Source of the DNA: a virus
Taxonomy: Duplodnaviria; Heunggongvirae; Uroviricota; Caudoviricetes
Virus record (IMG/VR): IMGVR_UViG_2565956721_000005
Reading direction: 5' to 3' (one strand)
DNA: 43,002 bases
A program made the position numbers and the translations under genes. The notes beneath the pieces were generated by a model, which saw only the letters and a list, made by a program, of their open reading frames with translations, was not told the DNA's origin and ran no database searches. Of this stretch, positions 25,009-38,469 are shown in pieces. Every line of letters starts with the position of its first letter. Positions within the stretch are counted from its first letter, which is position 1.

Positions 25009-25224
25009 TTACTCTCCCCGTGCCGCCTTACGACGGTCCTCTCTGATTTTGAAATACAGGTTAGTCAGATATGTCAGCAGCCCAAACAGCAGACTCCCCA
25101 GCACGCCTATTGCCGCCCACTGAGACGGGGAAACCCTGTCCAGCAACTGCAGGAACCAGTAGCCCGTTCCCACCGCTGACGTGGTGTATGACACACCTGT
25201 TGTGATTTTTTCCATCTGGTCCAT
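25009..25224 (-). CDS. S: pinholin (S21-like class II holin) with dual-start motif MDQM
   Basis: 71 aa ...[46 protein letters not shown] matches recalled phage 21 S; ORF track start at 25329 is an upstream extension. Confidence 0.9.
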
Positions 25225-25492
25225 ACCCCGTCTCCCGTTATCCGGAAGCTGAAAACAATAAAAAAGCCACCAGTTAACTACTGATGGCTCTGATAACTCA
25301 TGCAAGCGTCTCAGACGACCCACTGACACTACCGGTGAGTTTAACGATACCTTCCATTTGACTGGCTCACTTTTTATGATGATGCCGATGCATTTATCTC
25401 CAGCGCCAGACTTTCTATCTCAACGCCATACGTTACATTTTTGGTAATATCCATCAGCGTCAGTGCATTTAGTCCCACTGCCAGACTGTCTT

Positions 25493-25720
25493 TTATGGCC
25501 TGGAATGCCGGGCCAGTACGATGACGTAGTACCAATCCGGCTCAGTTGCACCACTGACCACCACATCACCTTCTGCTGCAATCGCCTGCATCAGGGTATA
25601 AGGGGTTATGGCCACCGGACTACCAAACGGCTGCCAGCCCTCCTTCAGTTTTTGTGTCAGTCGTTTCGCAAGGTCTGACGGCGATACCGCCCTGACCACG
25701 TCATAGTGTTTAAATGCCAT
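25493..25720 (-). CDS. hypothetical 75-aa protein upstream of holin
   Basis: Strong RBS GGGAGGA 6 nt before ATG; MAFKHYDVVRAVSPSDLAKRLTQKLKEGWQPFGSPVAITPYTLMQAIAAEGDVVVSGATEPDWYYVIVLARHSRP. Confidence 0.6.
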   Translation of the reverse strand: MAFKHYDVVRAVSPSDLAKRLTQKLKEGWQPFGSPVAITPYTLMQAIAAEGDVVVSGATEPDWYYVIVLARHSRP

Positions 25721-25907
25721 GAATCCTCCCGGCCGGGATAATATTGTGAGTAAAATAAGGAGCGGGCTGAAGTCCGGAAGTTACAGGACAATGGCAGAAG
25801 AGAGACGACAGCCCGCAATTCGAAAAAGACCGCGCAGTTGCGCAGAGTGATTACTATGGGGTATTATTCGCCAGCTGAAATATTACTTCACGTTTTATTG
25901 TTTATTC

Positions 25908-25942
25908 CTTGCCGCCCGCGTCTCCCAGCGCGGGCTTTTTTT
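25908..25942 (+). terminator. plus-strand intrinsic terminator (convergent with the minus-strand terminator at 25955-25978)
   Basis: GCCCGCG-TCTCCCAG-CGCGGGC followed by T7. Confidence 0.55.
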
Positions 25943-25954
25943 GCCCACAAGAAA

Positions 25955-26190
25955 ACCCCTCCGGAGAGGGGCTAAAGCCGCGTATCTGTATCATCATGCA
26001 CATGGTGCCGGGTGCCTCCCGGTGAGTTCAGCCCGGTGCCACTAAACCCGCGTCATTCTCGTTTTGATAATCAGAGATTATACCGTCACCAGTCGCCCCT
26101 CCGCTCAGGGGGATTCACCATGCGAAATTTTTTTAACAAATGCCCAGTCTGACAGGCAACTGTCAACTTACTGAATTGTGAGCAACATAG
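25955..26190 (-). repeat. direct repeat unit 1 (about 215 bp) with conserved GC hairpins, ending in a minus-strand intrinsic terminator (25955-25978)
   Basis: Shares long identical blocks with 26440-26655; terminal CCCCTC-TCCG-GAGGGG followed by TTTTCTT. Confidence 0.75.
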
Positions 26191-26227
26191 CATTTAACGG
26201 GGAACCTGTTTTCTGCAGTAAAAAGGC

Positions 26228-26255
26228 CCACCGGAGCGGATGGGCCTGGAAGGAT
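26228..26255 (-). terminator. intrinsic terminator between the two repeat units
   Basis: Minus strand GGCCCATCCGCTCCGGTGGGCC followed by TTTTTACTG. Confidence 0.5.
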
Positions 26256-26439
26256 AGCGGTCATGTGATGCCGGTTTCCCGGTAACTCAGCACCGGTATC
26301 TGAGTCAACGTTTTCTCTACTGGGTCATTTCCGATACGCCCTGCCTGCTGACAGGCTTTCATCACATCTGAAAATATAGCACCCTGACTGATACTGTAGT
26401 ACCTAAGGTTCCAGAAACTGTGATGTATCCGGCACAGAA

Positions 26440-26655
26440 AAGCCCCTCCGGAGAGGGGCTGGAGAGTGGCGCTATGTGCCATTGCATGGTGCCGGGTGCC
26501 TCCCGGTGAATTCAGTACCAGCACCTGAATCCGCGATTATCCCATATACCTACTCGCTGATTGCCCCTCCGCACAGGGGGATTCACCATGCCAGTTTCTT
26601 TTAACAAACTCCCCGCAAACCAGACAACAGTCAACCGCCTGAATTGTGAGACATT
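26440..26655 (-). repeat. direct repeat unit 2, paralog of 25955-26190, ending in a minus-strand intrinsic terminator (26443-26466)
   Basis: Conserved blocks GGTGCCGGGTGCCTCCCGGTGA, CCCCTCCGC.CAGGGGGATTCACCATG, CAGTCAAC..CTGAATTGTGAG; terminal CCCCTCTCCGGAGGGGCTTTTCT. Confidence 0.75.
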
Positions 26656-26695
26656 TAAAAAAAAGCCCGCAAAAGCGAGCCAGGGAAAATAAGTG

Positions 26696-26772
26696 TGGCG
26701 CGTTGTACTGGATTCGAACCAGTGACCGATTGCTTAGAAGGCAATTGCTCTGTCCGGCTGAGCTAACAACGC
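26696..26772 (-). tRNA. argO: tRNA-Arg, anticodon UCU (reads AGA/AGG); argO-like
   Basis: Cloverleaf read by hand: acceptor GCGTTGT, anticodon loop CTTCTAA, T-arm ACTGGTTCGAATCCAGT, 3' GCCA. Confidence 0.85.
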
Positions 26773-26785
26773 AGGATACAGATAA

Positions 26786-26862
26786 TGGACCGCCTTCGGG
26801 GACCCGAACTCCGCGCAACCAGCTTCGAAGGCTGGCGCTCTTTCCTGATGAGCTAATGGCGG
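26786..26862 (-). tRNA. argN: tRNA-Arg-like, anticodon UCG; non-canonical T-loop (TTCGGGT) and one acceptor-stem mismatch
   Basis: Cloverleaf read by hand: anticodon stem CCAGC/GCTGG, loop CTTCGAA, D-loop with GG, 3' ...GGTCCA. Confidence 0.6.
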
Positions 26863-26869
26863 TATGTGA

Positions 26870-26945
26870 TGGTGGCCCTTGCTGGATTTGAACCAGCGAC
26901 CTGGCGATTATGAGTCGCTCGCTCTCACCACTGAGCTAAAGGGCC
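26870..26945 (-). tRNA. ileZ: tRNA-Ile2, anticodon CAU (lysidine type, reads AUA); ileZ/ileX-like
   Basis: GGCCCTTTAGCTCAGTGGTGAGAGC...CTCATAA...GGTTCAAATCCAGCAAGGGCCACCA; near-identical to recalled E. coli ileX. Confidence 0.85.
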
Positions 26946-26954
26946 GGGAGCAGA

Positions 26955-26983
26955 ATAATAATGGTGCGTAATTAATTCTGCAA
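26955..26983 (-). promoter_or_regulatory. sigma70-type promoter for the tRNA operon (TTGCAG-17-TATTAT)
   Basis: Minus strand GATTGCAGAATTAATTACGCACCATTATTATTCTGCTCCC directly before the first tRNA. Confidence 0.6.
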
Positions 26984-26994
26984 TCTCATCCGTT

Positions 26995-28044
26995 TCAAAC
27001 GATTAAATCCTGAACTTCCCTGACTGTCTGCTCAAAACGTCCGGTCTCCAGCTCAACACCAATCGCACGACGCCCCAGTGCCATCGCCGCTTTTACCGTT
27101 GAACCCGACCCCATGAAAAAATCCGCAACCAGATCACCAGGACGGCTACTTGCGCTGATTATCTGCTGCAGCATTTCTGCCGGTTTTTCGCACGGATGTT
27201 TCCCGGGATAGAACTGCACCGGTTTATGCGTCCACACATCGGTATACGGCACCTGCACCGTCACGCCAAAATACCGCCGCAGATGTTTATATTCACTCAG
27301 CAGCTCCGCATACTGCCGGTTCAGTGAGGTATACGTATCCACCAGCTGGTGGTGGAGCTTTTCCAGTTCACCACGCCGATGCTTCTCTTCTGCCACCCGG
27401 GCAAACAGCGCCTGTAATTTCAGATAATCGCTTTCATTCGGTAGCTGCCACTGACTGGCACTGAACCAGTGCGACACCATGTTTTTCTTTCCTGTGGCAT
27501 CTGCAATCTGTTTTGCCGTTATCCCCAGGGCCGCGCGCGCATCACGAAAGTAAGAAATCAGCGGGGCCATCACATGCTGTTTCAGTGCACTGCCCTTCGC
27601 CGCATACCCGGCATCTTTCGGACGATACGGCCCCTGATAATGTTCCGCGAACAGAATGCGCTCTGTGGCGGGGAAATACGCCCGCAGCCTTTCCTTGTTG
27701 CATCCGTTCCAGCGTCCGGACGGCTTCGCCCAGATAATATGGTTCAGCACACTGAAGCGTTCACGCATCATGATTTCGATATCAGATGCCAGGCGATGAC
27801 CACAGAACAGGTAAAGACTTCCGGCAGGTTTCAGCACCCGCCAGAACTGCGCCAGACACTGGTCCAGCCACTTTAGGTAATCATCGTCGCCCTTCCACTG
27901 GTTATCCCAGCCCTCAGGCTTCACTTTAAAGTACGGCGGGTCCGTGACTATCAGGTCAACAGAATTTTCGGGTAACGACCGGATAAATTCCAGGCAGTCG
28001 GCGTTGATTAACTCACAACTGGATATTTTTACAGTATTAAGCAT
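26995..28044 (-). CDS. orphan DNA methyltransferase (beta-class amino-MTase, N6-adenine or N4-cytosine)
   Basis: 349 aa; motif IV TDPPY near the N-terminus and motif I DFFMGSGST near the C-terminus; no adjacent endonuclease. Confidence 0.8.
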   Translation of the reverse strand: MLNTVKISSCELINADCLEFIRSLPENSVDLIVTDPPYFKVKPEGWDNQWKGDDDYLKWLDQCLAQFWRVLKPAGSLYLFCGHRLASDIEIMMRERFSVLNHIIWAKPSGRWNGCNKERLRAYFPATERILFAEHYQGPYRPKDAGYAAKGSALKQHVMAPLISYFRDARAALGITAKQIADATGKKNMVSHWFSASQWQLPNESDYLKLQALFARVAEEKHRRGELEKLHHQLVDTYTSLNRQYAELLSEYKHLRRYFGVTVQVPYTDVWTHKPVQFYPGKHPCEKPAEMLQQIISASSRPGDLVADFFMGSGSTVKAAMALGRRAIGVELETGRFEQTVREVQDLIV

Positions 28045-28180
28045 GGATCATTAAGCCTGTCTCTGATAGGCTCATTCTGCTTTTGCGCAAAGCAGTGGGC
28101 CTGAGGTTTGCTTGTGATCCGGACGCATGAGCAGATGGCTGGTGGGTGCCCCTAACACCCACCAGCCGCCCATTTACCAC

Positions 28181-28208
28181 AAATAAAAAAGCCTTCACTG
28201 CGGAAGGC
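28181..28208 (-). terminator. intrinsic terminator after the 65-aa ORF
   Basis: Minus strand GCCTTCCGCAGTGAAGGC followed by TTTTTTATTTG. Confidence 0.6.
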
Positions 28209-28392
28209 GTCTGTAACAACCGAACTGATAGTCTGCCAGACCCGCCATAACCAGCTGAGTCAGTATTAACTGGCAGCGTTCGCGTGAAAGGTAAGTATTC
28301 TGCGCTATCTCCCCGACTGTCGCCGGGTCGGTAACGCTTAATTCATTAAACACCACTCTGGCGGTTTCTGTCATATCCTGCTGTTTTAGCAT
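28195..28392 (-). CDS. hypothetical 65-aa protein between two terminators downstream of pR'
   Basis: ATG with AAGGA RBS; MLKQQDMTETARVVFNELSVTDPATVGEIAQNTYLSRERCQLILTQLVMAGLADYQFGCYRRLPQ. Confidence 0.45.
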   Translation of the reverse strand: MLKQQDMTETARVVFNELSVTDPATVGEIAQNTYLSRERCQLILTQLVMAGLADYQFGCYRRLPQ

Positions 28393-28510
28393 GTCTTTTC
28401 CTTTTCCGGTTAACGTGACACACCAATAACTCTTGTCGAAAAAGCCAGCAAGCTGAAAGACAGGTATTCACCGCCACCAGCGCGTTTACTGTACTGACGC
28501 GATTTCAGTC

Positions 28511-28536
28511 ATAAAAAACCCGCCAGGCGGCGGGGT
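28511..28536 (-). terminator. tR'-like intrinsic terminator about 65 nt downstream of the late promoter
   Basis: Minus strand CCCGCC-GCCT-GGCGGG followed by TTTTTT. Confidence 0.6.
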
Positions 28537-28559
28537 GTAAAAAATCTTCTAACGTCAGG

Positions 28560-28611
28560 CATAAAACGCCCATCGTTAGAGCAAATTTACCACAGATTCG
28601 GGAAAAATCAA
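28560..28611 (-). promoter_or_regulatory. late promoter pR' with qut-like region (TTGATT-16-TAAATT)
   Basis: Minus strand TTGATTTTTCCCGAATCTGTGGTAAATTTGCTCTAACGATGGGCG resembles recalled lambda pR' (GGGTAAATTTGACTCAACGATGGG). Confidence 0.65.
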
Positions 28612-28616
28612 CAACA

Positions 28617-29438
28617 CTATCGCGTTACCCTCTTTAACTGCCGCTCCGCCCATGCCTCTTCAATGTCAAACCGAACCACCAACGTATCGTAAAAGCGTTT
28701 CACTGATTTTTTCCACGTATCAAGCGTGATAGCACTCGTCACTTTGCATATGGCATTAAATGCCTCCGTTGATGGCAGCCTTTCACAGCCACGACCACCA
28801 CAACGCTGGCAATCTCTGATAACAGGCATACCACGTTTTACCGACTCTTCACGATGAATGGCGACACCACGCCCACGGCAATCCTTACAGGCGGTGGAAA
28901 CCTCACCCTTTCCGCCACACTCCGGACAGGCAACTTTTACCACCTCCCTGACTTTTTTCCATTCTTCCCAGTAAGACGGATACACGCCTTTTGTGCACTT
29001 TGCCCACACTGGTGGCTTACCATCCGGATACTGGATCTTGTTTGTAAAAACCTCGCTTTCAATAAATTTTTTTCCGTGACAGCAAGGGCACTGTTTTTTG
29101 CTCGCCGCGCTACGGGCATAATCTTCAAACGCATACGAAGCCATAATGCGCATCACTACCGGTTTTATTTCTGCCGGAAGTTTTCTCAACGCCGCCACAC
29201 GATCGCACCGACTGAGTGCATAATCTGCCAGTAATTCTGTTGCCCGCGCCCTGTCATTCATACTGATGCCCATTTTCTCCAGGAACGCAGAAAACCCCAT
29301 CTCAGCCCGATTCTGTGTCATGCCCTGCGCGGCCATCACATCAGTGATACTCAGCGCATCTTTTGACGTTGAGGCCGATGCATCGGTCAGGCCAGGGGAT
29401 TTTGGGGAGTAGTATTTCGGTAAATCTTCCAGTTTCAT
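28617..29438 (-). CDS. antitermination protein Q (long Q family with CxxCxGxG zinc-finger repeats)
   Basis: 273 aa with CPCCHGKK, CPECGGKG, CKDCRGRG, CQRCGGRG; positioned immediately upstream of pR'. Confidence 0.75.
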   Translation of the reverse strand: MKLEDLPKYYSPKSPGLTDASASTSKDALSITDVMAAQGMTQNRAEMGFSAFLEKMGISMNDRARATELLADYALSRCDRVAALRKLPAEIKPVVMRIMASYAFEDYARSAASKKQCPCCHGKKFIESEVFTNKIQYPDGKPPVWAKCTKGVYPSYWEEWKKVREVVKVACPECGGKGEVSTACKDCRGRGVAIHREESVKRGMPVIRDCQRCGGRGCERLPSTEAFNAICKVTSAITLDTWKKSVKRFYDTLVVRFDIEEAWAERQLKRVTR

Positions 29439-31315: not shown

Positions 31316-31471
31316 TTACTCCTCAGGTTCGTAAACTGTGAAGACAGCGACCTCCGTCTGGCCGGTTCGGATTCGTACCTCGCAGAGGTCTTTCCTCGTT
31401 ACCAGTGCCGTCACTATGACGGTTAAACAGATGACGATCAGGGCGATTAACATCGCCTTTTGCTGCTTCAT
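31316..31471 (-). CDS. hokD: Hok-family type I toxin (HokD/RelF-like)
   Basis: 51 aa MKQQKAMLIALIVICLTVIVTALVTRKDLCEVRIRTGQTEVAVFTVYEPEE; hairpins at the mRNA 3' end and in the upstream leader as in hok loci. Confidence 0.9.
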   Translation of the reverse strand: MKQQKAMLIALIVICLTVIVTALVTRKDLCEVRIRTGQTEVAVFTVYEPEE

Positions 31472-31686
31472 AGCCTGCTTCTCCTTGCCTTTCGGCACGT
31501 AAGAGGCTAACCTAGATTTGCCGTTCATAGATTGAGCCTCAGATTAATGTTAAGCGTCTTGCAGGACGCGTAATATTAACTGGGGCTTTTCTCTATCTGC
31601 CTTTGGTGTTCATGCCTGAGGCAGATAGCCTCAAGCACCCGCAGCAATTCTACTTAACTCCCGTCACCTCGCCAATATAAAATCAA

Positions 31687-38413: not shown

Positions 38414-38469
38414 TTTCTGGTGACGTTTGGCGGTATCAGTTTTACTCCGTGACTGCTCTGCCGCCCTTT
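38414..38469 (+). ncRNA. dicF: DicF small RNA (ftsZ-targeting sRNA of the dicB operon)
   Basis: TTTCTGGTGACGTTTGGCGGTATCAGTTTTACTCCGTGACTGCTCTGCCGCCC followed by TTTTT; matches recalled E. coli DicF. Confidence 0.85.

Follow-up and report, generated by a model that had tools for sequence, protein, structure and literature searches.

The window, by which we mean the whole 43,002-nucleotide stretch of tailed-phage DNA analysed here (IMG/VR record IMGVR_UViG_2565956721_000005), is identical to a prophage of ExPEC strains, UTI89 being one example. One strand carries, in this order, the genes for a Q antiterminator, a methylase and three tRNAs, an array of repeated units, a DUF1737 remnant, and the holin and lysozyme genes. 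The minus strand is the late strand, because it carries the genes for the Q antiterminator, the DNA methylase, the tRNAs, the holin and the lysozyme. The repeated units (Table 1) sit in the slot between the tRNA and the lysis genes, which a previous reading made from the letters alone (the sequence-only reading) had likened to the place where Stx phages carry stx. The likeness holds: in Stx2 phages a copy of the sRNA gene family STnc100, to which these units are related, lies 75 nt downstream of stx2B (PMC12370729, PMC4104026).

Table 1. Features of the repeat locus and its surroundings (positions in the window)
Feature	Position	Strand	Evidence
Phage tRNA cluster (CAT-anticodon tRNA, Arg-TCG, Arg-TCT), directly upstream of the array	26696..26945	-	ARAGORN, Rfam, RefSeq UTI89
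Terminator after the tRNA cluster	26681-26664	-	Terminator scan
Repeat unit 2, STnc100-family sRNA gene and promoter region	26433..26650	-	Rfam RF02076 match 26620-26430; alignment
Intrinsic terminator stem of unit 2, AGCCCCUCUCCGGAGGGGCU, then UUUU (26440-26437)	26441..26460	-	Terminator scan
Middle unit, diverged STnc100-like sRNA gene	26218..26391	-	Rfam below threshold, fold, extended -10, own terminator
Intrinsic terminator stem of the middle unit, then UUUUU	26247-26224	-	Terminator scan
Repeat unit 1, STnc100-family sRNA gene and promoter region	25946..26182	-	Rfam RF02076 match 26152-25943; alignment
Intrinsic terminator stem of unit 1, AGCCCCUCUCCGGAGGGGUU, then U-tract	25954..25973	-	Terminator scan
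Convergent partner sRNA	25761..25942	+	97% identity to EPEC RIL-seq sRNA; promoter-like site, terminator
DUF1737 remnant, N-terminal part of a nanS-p-type esterase gene, downstream of the array	25493..25720	-	Pfam; RefSeq pseudogene
Holin gene, then DUF1327 and lysozyme genes, past the DUF1737 remnant	holin 25224-25009	-	RefSeq, Pfam

Units 1 and 2 are members of the STnc100 family

A repeat search found direct repeats in the window (repeat families D1, D3 and D4), and pairwise alignment of units 1 and 2, a check that the sequence-only reading had proposed, gave a mean column identity of 81% with a single 15-nt indel. On the minus strand the homology runs from CTCACAATTCAG to UUUUCUNGUG and covers 237 nt in unit 1 and 218 nt in unit 2, so the two repeats are real and slightly wider than the extents first given for them (25955-26190 and 26440-26655). 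The Rfam scan, also proposed there, matched both units to RF02076, 'Gammaproteobacterial sRNA STnc100', over model positions 1-206, that is, the whole model. Unit 1 scored 161.0 bits (E 2.2e-36) and unit 2 scored 136.3 bits (E 4.8e-30), the cut-off for membership being the curated gathering score of 47 bits. With these E-values the repeats are far beyond chance.

Units 1 and 2 are full-length members of the STnc100 family. They lie in the late region of a lambdoid prophage, as is characteristic of this multicopy family, and they keep its closing helix, internal hairpins and 3' terminator, as judged from MFE folds and from covariation among 30 members. In support of the earlier idea of paralogous structured small-RNA genes with intrinsic terminators, homologues have been detected by experiment as sRNAs associated with Hfq. 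That reading had proposed sRNA genes but had missed that their family is known, that a third unit is present and that a convergent sRNA faces the array.

A third, diverged unit lies between them

The 250-nt "spacer" between units 1 and 2 is a diverged third unit. It aligned to RF02076 over its full length with 30.1 bits (E 2.6e-4 in a 1.5-kb search), and its phage homologues scored 30.0 bits. Because the score is under the gathering threshold, we call the middle unit an STnc100-like diverged relative and do not file it as an RF02076 member. The phage records PhiR5_2 and vB_EcoS-640R1 have kept the triple array, and there the counterpart of the middle unit, flanked by two STnc100 copies, is 85% identical to it; the changes between them preserve the hairpins. 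Since the middle unit has its own extended -10, the same helices (its P1 is AUGUGAUG/CAUCACAU) and its own terminator, the locus is probably a head-to-tail array of three paralogous STnc100/PasD-family sRNA genes, two canonical and one diverged.

The units share one fold with a probable pseudoknot

Folded independently, the MFE structures of all three units had one layout, P1/P2/variable/P3/P4/tail/terminator, with modest z-scores (-1.3 for unit 1, -2.1 for unit 2 and -2.7 for the middle unit). The covariation analysis that the sequence-only reading had recommended upheld this common architecture. In an alignment of 30 diverse family members, 97.8% of the cells pair, and sliding the partner columns lowered this to 38-49%. 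Both-sided changes occurred in 7 pairs, against 2.1 in shuffled alignments, and none of 500 shuffles reached the observed value. The covarying pairs are located in P1 and P3, several of the P1 double changes stemming from the middle unit alone; P2 and P4 are invariant in the 30-member set, and covariation is uninformative there.

The linker between P2 and P3 and the loop of P3 vary together, in the classes AUCAGC/GCUGAU, AUCAGU/ACUGAU, CUGGUG/CACCGG, AAUGAC/GUCAUU and AAUGAUC/GAUCAUU, which represent perhaps 3-5 independent events. Helices of 6-8 bp can form in 22 of the 24 distinct linker-loop combinations, and none of 5000 permutations reached the observed mean; the pairing was tested with an anchor-based Python script that allowed G-U pairs, which blurs the class matrix. 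Modelled in this way, the P2-P3 linker and the P3 loop probably form a pseudoknot. A nested alternative, in which the linker pairs with the P3 region, appears in the MFE fold of the phage homologue of the middle unit. Since RNAalifold and covariance models handle nested structures, the linker-loop pairing is invisible to them, and it is absent from the consensus structure line of RF02076 in the cmscan output. Note that the MAFFT alignment sets the linker classes one column out of register, so that no single bracket string fits. The 3' arm of P2 in units 1 and 2 (GGAGGGGC) has the same sequence as the 3' arm of the terminator, and an alternative pairing is possible; this identity is absent with the other terminator types, those of PasD, of the middle unit and of the GGCUCCUC type.

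Predicted promoters and transcripts, and terminators

The predicted promoter of unit 1 consists of TTGCCT (26159-54), an 18-nt spacer and TGT-TAAAAA (26138-26130), and that of unit 2 of TTGTCT (26627-22), again an 18-nt spacer, and TGT-TAAAAG (26606-26598), each lying within its unit; the middle unit has the extended -10 TGC-TATATT at 26381-26373. A promoter scan did not call the promoters of the units, because their -35 and -10 hexamers are weak. In support of the assignment, the unit promoter region aligns with that of PasD, an sRNA of EPEC. Placing the 5' ends by homology only, from the mapped 5' end of PasD1 (the G of GCAUGGUG / GCAUGG), predicts minus-strand transcripts from ~26123 to ~25950 for unit 1 and from ~26591 to ~26437 for unit 2. 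Note that, judged by this PasD 5' end, the first ~29 positions of the RF02076 model are predicted promoter DNA here. A CRP site in the conserved upstream box CTCACAATTCAG (TGTGA centred at ~-61.5) was also considered and set aside: the box holds a single good half-site, and a role for CRP is speculation only.

All three units end in a GC-rich hairpin directly followed by 4-5 T. In units 1 and 2 the hairpin is CCCCUCUCCGGAGGGG (AGCCCCTCTCCGGAGGGG plus a T-run on the minus strand), and the terminator scan found both where the sequence-only reading had placed a hairpin and U-tract on the late strand. The units contain the sequence prerequisites of an Hfq-type sRNA, namely a predicted promoter, a single-stranded tail rich in C/U and a terminator with 4 or more U.

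A convergent sRNA faces unit 1

On the plus strand lies a sequence 97% identical to the EPEC E2348/69 RIL-seq sRNA E2348C_1409.E2348C_1408.IGR, whose homologues are EcOnc08/21/42. It has a promoter-like site (25714-25742), a terminator (25914-25935, then T7) and a seed-like CCUUGCC. Its 3' end and that of unit 1 are ~6-10 bp apart, an sRNA 'dyad' arrangement, and the EPEC counterpart locus also adjoins a convergent STnc100 match (75.5 bits). We asked whether this RNA could be AgvB or AsxR, which are anti-sRNAs of 51-60 nt with a conserved 3' part of ~42 nt and are recognised by their Rfam models. RF02702 and RF02703 gave no match at the gathering threshold in the whole window and none at E<=10 in 25200-26700; the RNA is of the EcOnc08/21/42 type instead.

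Distribution and genomic context

An 801-bp segment of the locus is near-complete in 352 of 5,426 complete E. coli genomes, and the STnc100 family occurs in more than half of them (2,906); E. coli genomes have 2 matching places in the median and 13 at most. In RefSeq (for example in UTI89) the array is unannotated and a spurious pseudogene is called over unit 2. Genome contigs were also searched with a 16-mer from the 5' block; because its reverse complement resembles a ribosome-binding site plus ATG, nearly all matches were due to chance, and true family members were found at 2 of 120 loci.

Two further candidates were rejected. For a PasA-like sRNA in the stretch from the DUF1737 remnant to the holin gene, the PasA probe gave no match at up to 3 mismatches, and alignment to the EPEC esterase-holin spacer revealed as the only common feature a terminator upstream of the holin gene. 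Likewise, a pair of STnc100 copies was considered as enclosing a cargo 'moron', but this was abandoned, as the insert between two copies 2.1 kb apart in L037 is only an IS3-type transposase pair.

Known relatives of the array

Lambdoid and Stx prophages carry STnc100 as a multicopy family of sRNAs. In strain EDL933, 11 copies are transcribed according to RNA-seq and one was confirmed by Northern blot; some copies carry ribosome footprints, with a ribosomal coverage value (footprint-to-transcript ratio) of 1.5-3.2 (PMC5331693). EcOnc27/sRNA103 is an Hfq-binding RNA that overlaps the STnc100 copy lying 3' of stx2B (PMC12711010, PMC4104026, PMC7873438). PasD1 and PasD2 are abundant, Northern-confirmed RNAs with Hfq-dependent RIL-seq target interactions and a seed in the 3' tail (PMC8550237), and PasD and STnc100 have been reported as structural homologues (bioRxiv 10.64898/2026.05.13.724894). 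No STnc100 copy is known to have a validated direct target.

Compared with the Rfam family, the locus agrees in the full 206-position match, the multicopy prophage location and the terminator, but differs in having three tandem copies, the middle one under the threshold. PasD1 and PasD2 of EPEC E2348/69 (Pearl Mizrahi et al. 2021; Zhu, Shabalina and Storz 2026 preprint) share with the units an aligned promoter and 5' domain (TTTRTTAAAAAA...GCAUGGUGAAUCCYCCU), P1, P2 and P3, the pseudoknot class AAUGAUC/GAUCAUU, and the slot, which follows Q and precedes the esterase and holin genes; hybrids of an STnc100 5' domain and a PasD-type tail also exist. However, PasD lacks P4 through a 7-nt deletion, has another tail (seed UGUGAG) and another terminator (GGCUGCGCAUGGCGCGGCC), scores under the Rfam STnc100 threshold, and its copies are reported to be dispersed, not tandem. 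The units align with PasD in the promoter and 5' domain only, not over its whole ~172-nt RNA, so they are not PasD copies.

A similar arrangement is known from the EcOnc27/sRNA103-AsxR and EcOnc06-AgvB dyads (Tree et al. 2014; Sy and Tree 2021), Hfq-binding convergent sRNAs between PR' and the lysis genes of EHEC prophages. There too a late-strand STnc100-type sRNA in the moron slot faces a convergent sRNA with its 3' end, but here the partner is of the EcOnc08/21/42 type, no stx cargo is present and three late-strand units replace one. OmrA/OmrB and PrrF1/PrrF2 are likewise adjacent, partly diverged paralogous sRNA genes with their own promoters and terminators. In those pairs the seed is conserved, whereas here the 5' domain is conserved, the putative seed tails differ and the array is phage-borne.

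Discussion

The repeats are a known kind of element: STnc100 is modelled in Rfam, reports of 2014 and 2021 described the slot and the Hfq-binding relatives of the family, and its kinship with PasD was described in 2026. Our preferred reading, to which we assign a probability of roughly 0.7, is that the locus is an array of three such genes in the moron slot, with the Q-dependent late promoter and the tRNA genes on one side and the nanS-p remnant and the lysis genes on the other, acting as Hfq-assisted trans sRNAs with their own promoters and terminators. The membership of units 1 and 2, the three-unit architecture, the terminators and the synteny can be read directly from the window; transcription of each unit is extrapolated from the homologues. 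In the lysogen, transcription of each unit would be driven by a sigma-70 promoter belonging to that unit, with a weak -35 and a TGn-extended -10. Transcription would start at the G of GCAUGGUG (GAUGUGAUG in the middle unit) and stop at the unit's own terminator, giving discrete RNAs of ~150-180 nt if the homologues are a guide. The 5' part of each RNA would be a compact conserved domain with the closing helix P1, hairpins P2-P4 and the probable pseudoknot, and the 3' part a short single-stranded tail, variable and rich in C/U, ahead of the terminator and its U-tract. Most probably the RNAs act in trans, base-pairing through the variable 3' tail with the help of Hfq, as mapped for PasD. Three units with three tails may then provide three target specificities, with the 5' domain as a common scaffold that stabilises the RNA or binds a protein. 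The three terminators and the others on this strand might also have the side effect of halting promoter-proximal transcription before the lysis genes, unless the RNA polymerase is Q-modified.

The sequence-only reading had raised the possibility of stacked terminators that make lysis expression Q-dependent. On such a view this last effect is the main one: the units act mainly in cis as intrinsic terminators or insulators, which shield the lysis genes from transcripts of tRNA and moron promoters and from PR' transcripts lacking antitermination, lysis is strictly Q-dependent, and any RNAs are by-products. Terminators are indeed enriched, since between 25200 and 28700 we counted 15 terminator-like sites against 3.4 +/- 1.7 expected, nearly all on the late strand (those at 26681, 26460, 26247, 25973, 25845 and 25291 among them). 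In lambda, Q-modified RNA polymerase reads through the terminators of the late operon, and intrinsic terminators (tR', 6S RNA) likewise lie on the late strand between Q and the holin genes; here, however, they are part of separately promoted sRNA genes ~2 kb downstream of Q, not of a PR'-proximal tR' transcript. Moreover, ~30 nt suffices for a terminator, which leaves a covarying 5' domain of 100-130 nt and conserved promoters unexplained, candidate tR'-type terminators are already present after the Q gene (28583 and 28534), and the homologues accumulate as discrete RNAs, Hfq-bound or with Hfq-dependent target interactions. We consider a primarily terminating role unlikely, and premature termination at most a side effect.

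It is less likely still that the 5' domain and terminator form a cis leader, a riboswitch-like or protein-dependent attenuator for nanS-p or the late genes, of which the sRNA is the 'off' product. A DUF1737/nanS-p start follows downstream on the same strand in 109 of 136 family units, 72 of them within 257-412 nt, PasD2 ends ~87 nt before the esterase start codon, and the domain is compact, highly conserved, invariant in its loops and likely pseudoknotted, as RNAs that bind a ligand or a protein typically are. Against this, no antiterminator pairing conserved across the terminator types connects domain and terminator, terminators and tails are freely swapped between copies, the convergent sRNA gene often intervenes between unit and DUF1737, the esterase gene in the window is just a remnant, PasD has many trans partners in RIL-seq, and no candidate ligand or protein is known.

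Another reading is that the repeats do little themselves and are conserved module boundaries, which homologous recombination between lambdoid phages at the moron slot has left behind and which promote it in turn. The family is indeed a mosaic, with promoter types, central regions and tails in differing combinations from copy to copy, some copies flank insertions (such as the IS element between the two in L037), and Zhu et al. invoke recombination around this region. Three diverged paralogues that all retain promoters, terminators and four helices with compensatory changes are, however, not what recombination scars would look like, and the homologues are abundant regulated RNAs, which makes this explanation very improbable.

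Least probable of all is that the units are coding or degraded coding sequence (peptides from the AUG of GCAUGGUG, a 33-aa middle ORF or an opposite-strand remnant): the predicted transcript has an AUG at +3, the opposite strand of the conserved block reads AGGGGGATTCACCATG (Shine-Dalgarno-like plus ATG), RefSeq and phage annotators call 'hypothetical protein' ORFs here and the EDL933 footprints would fit, but ORF lengths vary (PasD has 8 aa, unit 1 has 11 aa, unit 2 has 25 aa, and the middle unit, with another start, has 33 aa), the unit ORFs have no Pfam match, the helices covary, and the middle ORF differs from its phage homologue by 5 nonsynonymous and 2 synonymous codons, with 7 of the 8 changed bases in P2, whose hairpin is kept.

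Returning to the array of trans-acting sRNAs, our analysis adds to what was known of these elements an array missing from the RefSeq annotation of ExPEC genomes such as UTI89, its three-member tandem form (the related Pas sRNAs being reported as dispersed), a fixed 5' domain with swappable tails across the family, and a covarying linker-loop pairing that points to a pseudoknot. These additions could guide work on the role of the conserved 5' domain.

Across the family, at least five types of tail and terminator follow one and the same 5' domain, the PasD-type tail of the hybrids among them, so that an invariant structured domain of 100-130 nt is followed by a variable tail. Since most sRNA families with a conserved seed show the reverse of this pattern, the main function could reside in the 5' domain and be other than base-pairing. 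Specifically, the invariant, probably pseudoknotted 5' domain of STnc100, PasD and the middle unit might be a dedicated binding module for a protein or small molecule, with interchangeable 3' tails, a speculative proposal that we regard as rather doubtful. If it were true, the domain could belong to a programmable 'scaffold plus guide' RNA or, as another possibility, to a leader gating read-through into the nanS-p esterase and lysis genes, and tandem arrays such as this one would supply several guides on one scaffold.

Two direct repeats are STnc100 genes

The sequence-only reading proposed two direct repeats of about 215 bp as candidate paralogous sRNAs, or else as stacked terminators that could make lysis Q-dependent. 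The repeats are real: the repeat finder returned direct repeats of 88, 31 and 28 nt, spaced 468-487 nt apart, which are the blocks seen originally, and pairwise alignment of the reverse complements gave 81% column identity between units 1 and 2, with a single 15-nt indel. Homology starts at the box CTCACAATTCAG and extends to the run beyond the terminator. Both units end in AGCCCCUCUCCGGAGGGG and a U-run, and the terminator scan confirmed these terminal intrinsic terminators on the late strand. This is the minus strand, as shown by the orientation of the Q antiterminator (PF03589), DNA methylase, tRNA (three), P21-type holin and lysozyme genes; the DUF1737 remnant and the DUF1327 protein gene also lie on it. 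A Rfam scan of the whole window assigned both units to STnc100 (RF02076), with all 206 model positions matched and scores (161.0 bits, E 2e-36, for unit 1; 136.3 bits, E 5e-30, for unit 2) far above the gathering score of 47 bits. The sRNA-gene interpretation was thus correct, and the family is an already known, catalogued one at a known position.

Positions of the array, its elements and neighbouring features
Feature	Position	Strand	Basis or detail
Unit 1	26182-25946	minus	pairwise homology limits
Unit 1 terminator stem	25973-25954	minus	terminator scan
Unit 2	26650-26433	minus	pairwise homology limits
Unit 2 terminator stem	26460-26441	minus	terminator scan
Box CTCACAATTCAG	26171-26182; 26639-26650	minus	
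ORFs from GCAUGGUG AUG	26086-26125; 26512-26593	minus	
Antisense block AGGGGGATTCACCATG	26110-26125; 26578-26593	plus	
Middle unit	26391-26218	minus	permissive Rfam scan, 25200-26700
Middle-unit extended -10	26381-26373	minus	TGC-TATATT
Middle-unit ORF, 33 aa	26261-26362	minus	start differs from GCAUGGUG AUG
Middle-unit terminator	26247-26224	minus	terminator scan; then five U
Convergent sRNA, unannotated	25761-25942	plus	mapped from EPEC RIL-seq sRNA
Convergent-sRNA promoter-like site	25714-25742	plus	
Convergent-sRNA terminator	25914-25935	plus	then T7
Esterase gene remnant	25720-25493	minus	75 codons
Pre-holin hairpin	25263-25291	minus	then T6
CAT-anticodon tRNA	26870-26945	minus	ARAGORN
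IS009	1378-1576	minus	Rfam, 224 bits
sok antitoxin RNA	31466-31640	minus	Rfam, 113 bits
DicF	38415-38466	plus	Rfam, 77 bits

STnc100 has 11 transcribed copies in EDL933, one Northern-confirmed and some with ribosome footprints (PMC5331693). One copy in Stx2 phages follows stx2B at a distance of 75 nt (PMC12370729) and overlaps the Hfq-binding sRNA EcOnc27/sRNA103 (PMC12711010). PasD1 and PasD2 of EPEC E2348/69, discovered via Hfq RIL-seq and Northern-confirmed, are reported to be structural homologues of STnc100 (2026 Storz-laboratory preprint, bioRxiv 10.64898/2026.05.13.724894). Neither PasD locus reached the Rfam STnc100 threshold; despite this, their promoter and 5' domain align with those of the window units.

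The mapped 5' end of PasD1 is the G of GCAUGGUG, and by homology unit 1 would start near 26123 and unit 2 near 26591. Since the consensus promoter scan did not call the putative promoters (TTGCCT, 18-nt spacer, TGT-TAAAAA for unit 1; TTGTCT, 18-nt spacer, TGT-TAAAAG for unit 2), we infer these 5' ends. Two promoter types occur across the family. The box CTCACAATTCAG sits about 48-59 nt before the predicted starts and recurs in 31 of the 58 distinct sequences upstream of family members; its TGTGA half-site has its centre near -61.5, where a class I CRP site would lie, but the second half-site is poor.

The spacer holds a third, diverged unit

Judged by sequence and fold, the 'spacer' between units 1 and 2 is a third, diverged STnc100-like unit. 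This middle unit matches the STnc100 model over its full length and scores 30.1 bits (E 2.6e-4), below the gathering score of 47. It has an extended -10, a predicted closing helix (AUGUGAUG/CAUCACAU), hairpins at the positions of P2, P3 and P4, a C/U-rich tail and a terminator. Folded separately, all three units are predicted to adopt a common structured layout, as had been proposed for the repeats (modest z-scores of -1.3, -2.1 and -2.7 for unit 1, unit 2 and the middle unit).

The triple array also occurs in phages PhiR5_2 and vB_EcoS-640R1, whose middle unit is 85% identical to ours. Its P2 is GCCUG-UCAG-CAGGC in the window and CUGCC-GGAA-GGCGG in the phages, and the terminator has been rebuilt too. 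The 33-codon ORF, which has no Pfam match, differs from its phage homologue by 5 nonsynonymous and 2 synonymous codons, a pattern that argues for selection on the RNA rather than on a peptide.

Over the short ORFs the substitution pattern favours RNA constraint. The AUG within GCAUGGUG opens ORFs that differ in length (11 and 25 aa in the window units, 8 aa in PasD). Note that the antisense of this conserved 5' block resembles a Shine-Dalgarno sequence plus ATG, and may be a source of spurious public ORF calls over the units; the same 16-mer matches true ribosome-binding sites of unrelated genomes, and a collection scan with it returned almost only chance hits.

A conserved 5' domain is joined to interchangeable tails

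A pattern scan of viral contigs yielded 120 loci, from which 49 different 5' domains and a wide range of tail types were extracted. The conserved 5' domain spans 99-129 nt, from GCAUGGUG to CACCAUGC, and is joined to at least five tail/terminator types, including hybrids with a PasD-type tail; by these comparisons the family is modular. No terminator was found within about 230 nt of the unit 5' end in L013, L020, L053, L075 and L222, which keep the conserved 5' domain and may be truncated copies or leaders of a downstream gene. One sub-type among such copies has P3 swapped for another hairpin, GUGAUACC...GGUAUCAC.

Covariation across homologues supported helices P1 and P3. In a 30-sequence MAFFT alignment, 97.8% of cells in the nested helices pair, falling to 38-49% once the partner columns are shifted by 1-3 positions. 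Two-sided changes affect 7 pairs, against 2.1 in shuffles (0/500 reach 7), and lie in the closing helix P1 and in P3; P2 and P4 hardly vary and so carry no information.

The P3 loop is complementary in sequence to the linker that follows P2, and both covary by class: AUCAGC with GCUGAU or GCUGGU; AUCAGU with ACUGAU; CUGGUG with CACCGG, CACCAG or UACCAG; AAUGAC with GUCAUU; AAUGAUC with GAUCAUU in PasD; and AUCGG with CCGGU in the middle unit (CCGAU in its phage homologue). Helices of 6-8 bp form in 22 of 24 distinct linker-loop combinations (shuffled-loop mean, 4.1 bp), and permuting loops among sequences reached the observed mean in 0/5000 trials, although probably just 3-5 independent events underlie the classes and tolerated G-U pairs blur the class matrix. 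A competing nested pairing of the linker exists. A pseudoknot between linker and P3 loop is likely on this comparative evidence; it is not shown in the cmscan consensus line for STnc100 or mentioned in the Storz preprint.

Genomic setting and the convergent sRNA

A prophage found in ExPEC strains and in the E. coli type strain, among them UTI89, S88, IHE3034 and ATCC 11775, carries the 801-bp array segment at 100% identity. Of 5,426 complete E. coli genomes, 352 have it nearly whole and 2,906 have some part of it, with a median of 2 and a maximum of 13 matching places per genome. RefSeq annotates no RNA gene at the array; its only call there, antisense to unit 2, is a partial 'hypothetical protein' pseudogene.

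The tRNA set upstream of the array resembles ileZ-argN-argO of Stx phages. ARAGORN calls the CAT-anticodon tRNA tRNA-Met, and RefSeq calls the identical UTI89 gene tRNA-Ile (lysidine type). Further prophage matches at the Rfam gathering threshold are IS009, DicF and sok antitoxin RNA, the last implying a hok/sok-type module.

Facing the 3' end of unit 1, positions 25740-25950 (plus) match an EPEC sRNA known from RIL-seq, E2348C_1409.E2348C_1408.IGR, at 97% identity; that RNA has EHEC homologues EcOnc08/21/42 and the cfa 5' UTR as a main partner. The convergent sRNA carries a seed-like CCUUGCC, and its EPEC counterpart likewise adjoins a convergent STnc100 match (75.5 bits). For eight Sakai prophages, Tree et al. 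described convergent Hfq-binding sRNA pairs at the 'moron' site that lies downstream of PR' (PMC4104026), an arrangement whose reason a later review calls unclear (PMC7873438). The window shows this dyad layout, with a late-strand STnc100 unit facing a convergent sRNA, but has three late-strand units, not one.

Discussion

The comparisons show that units 1 and 2 belong to STnc100 and that all three units have one architecture; the terminators and the synteny are shown too. The best-supported reading is that the array comprises three sRNA genes, each promoted and terminated separately. With Hfq, their products would work in trans, using C/U-rich 3' tails that differ between the units, the mode mapped for PasD; the common 5' domain would be a scaffold that stabilises the RNA or binds protein. 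Start sites, Hfq dependence, seed location and the role of the 5' domain are inferred.

That stacked terminators make lysis Q-dependent is plausible as a side effect, since 25200-28700 carries 15 terminator-like sites, almost all on the late strand, against 3.4 expected, and Q-modified polymerase, which in lambda bypasses such terminators, should pass them; it leaves the promoters and conserved domain unexplained. The strong terminator-like hairpin some 40 nt before the holin start codon, comparable to one that precedes holin in E2348/69 prophage PP2, may mark where another small transcript ends or be a further terminator for Q to override.

A cis-leader of the downstream DUF1737/nanS-p gene is kept alive by that gene's start lying downstream on the same strand of 109 of 136 STnc100/PasD units (72 within 257-412 nt; L004-L126 plus the window, where the esterase gene is a mere remnant), but has low probability given the free swapping of terminators between copies and the absence of a conserved antiterminator pairing: an alternative pairing is possible in units 1 and 2, where the P2 3' arm equals the terminator 3' arm, and is missing with the other terminator types.

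What is new is modest: a tandem triple array, the Pas relatives being reported as dispersed (Storz preprint); a diverged member scoring below the Rfam threshold; a modular design of 5' domain and tails; and a candidate pseudoknot.
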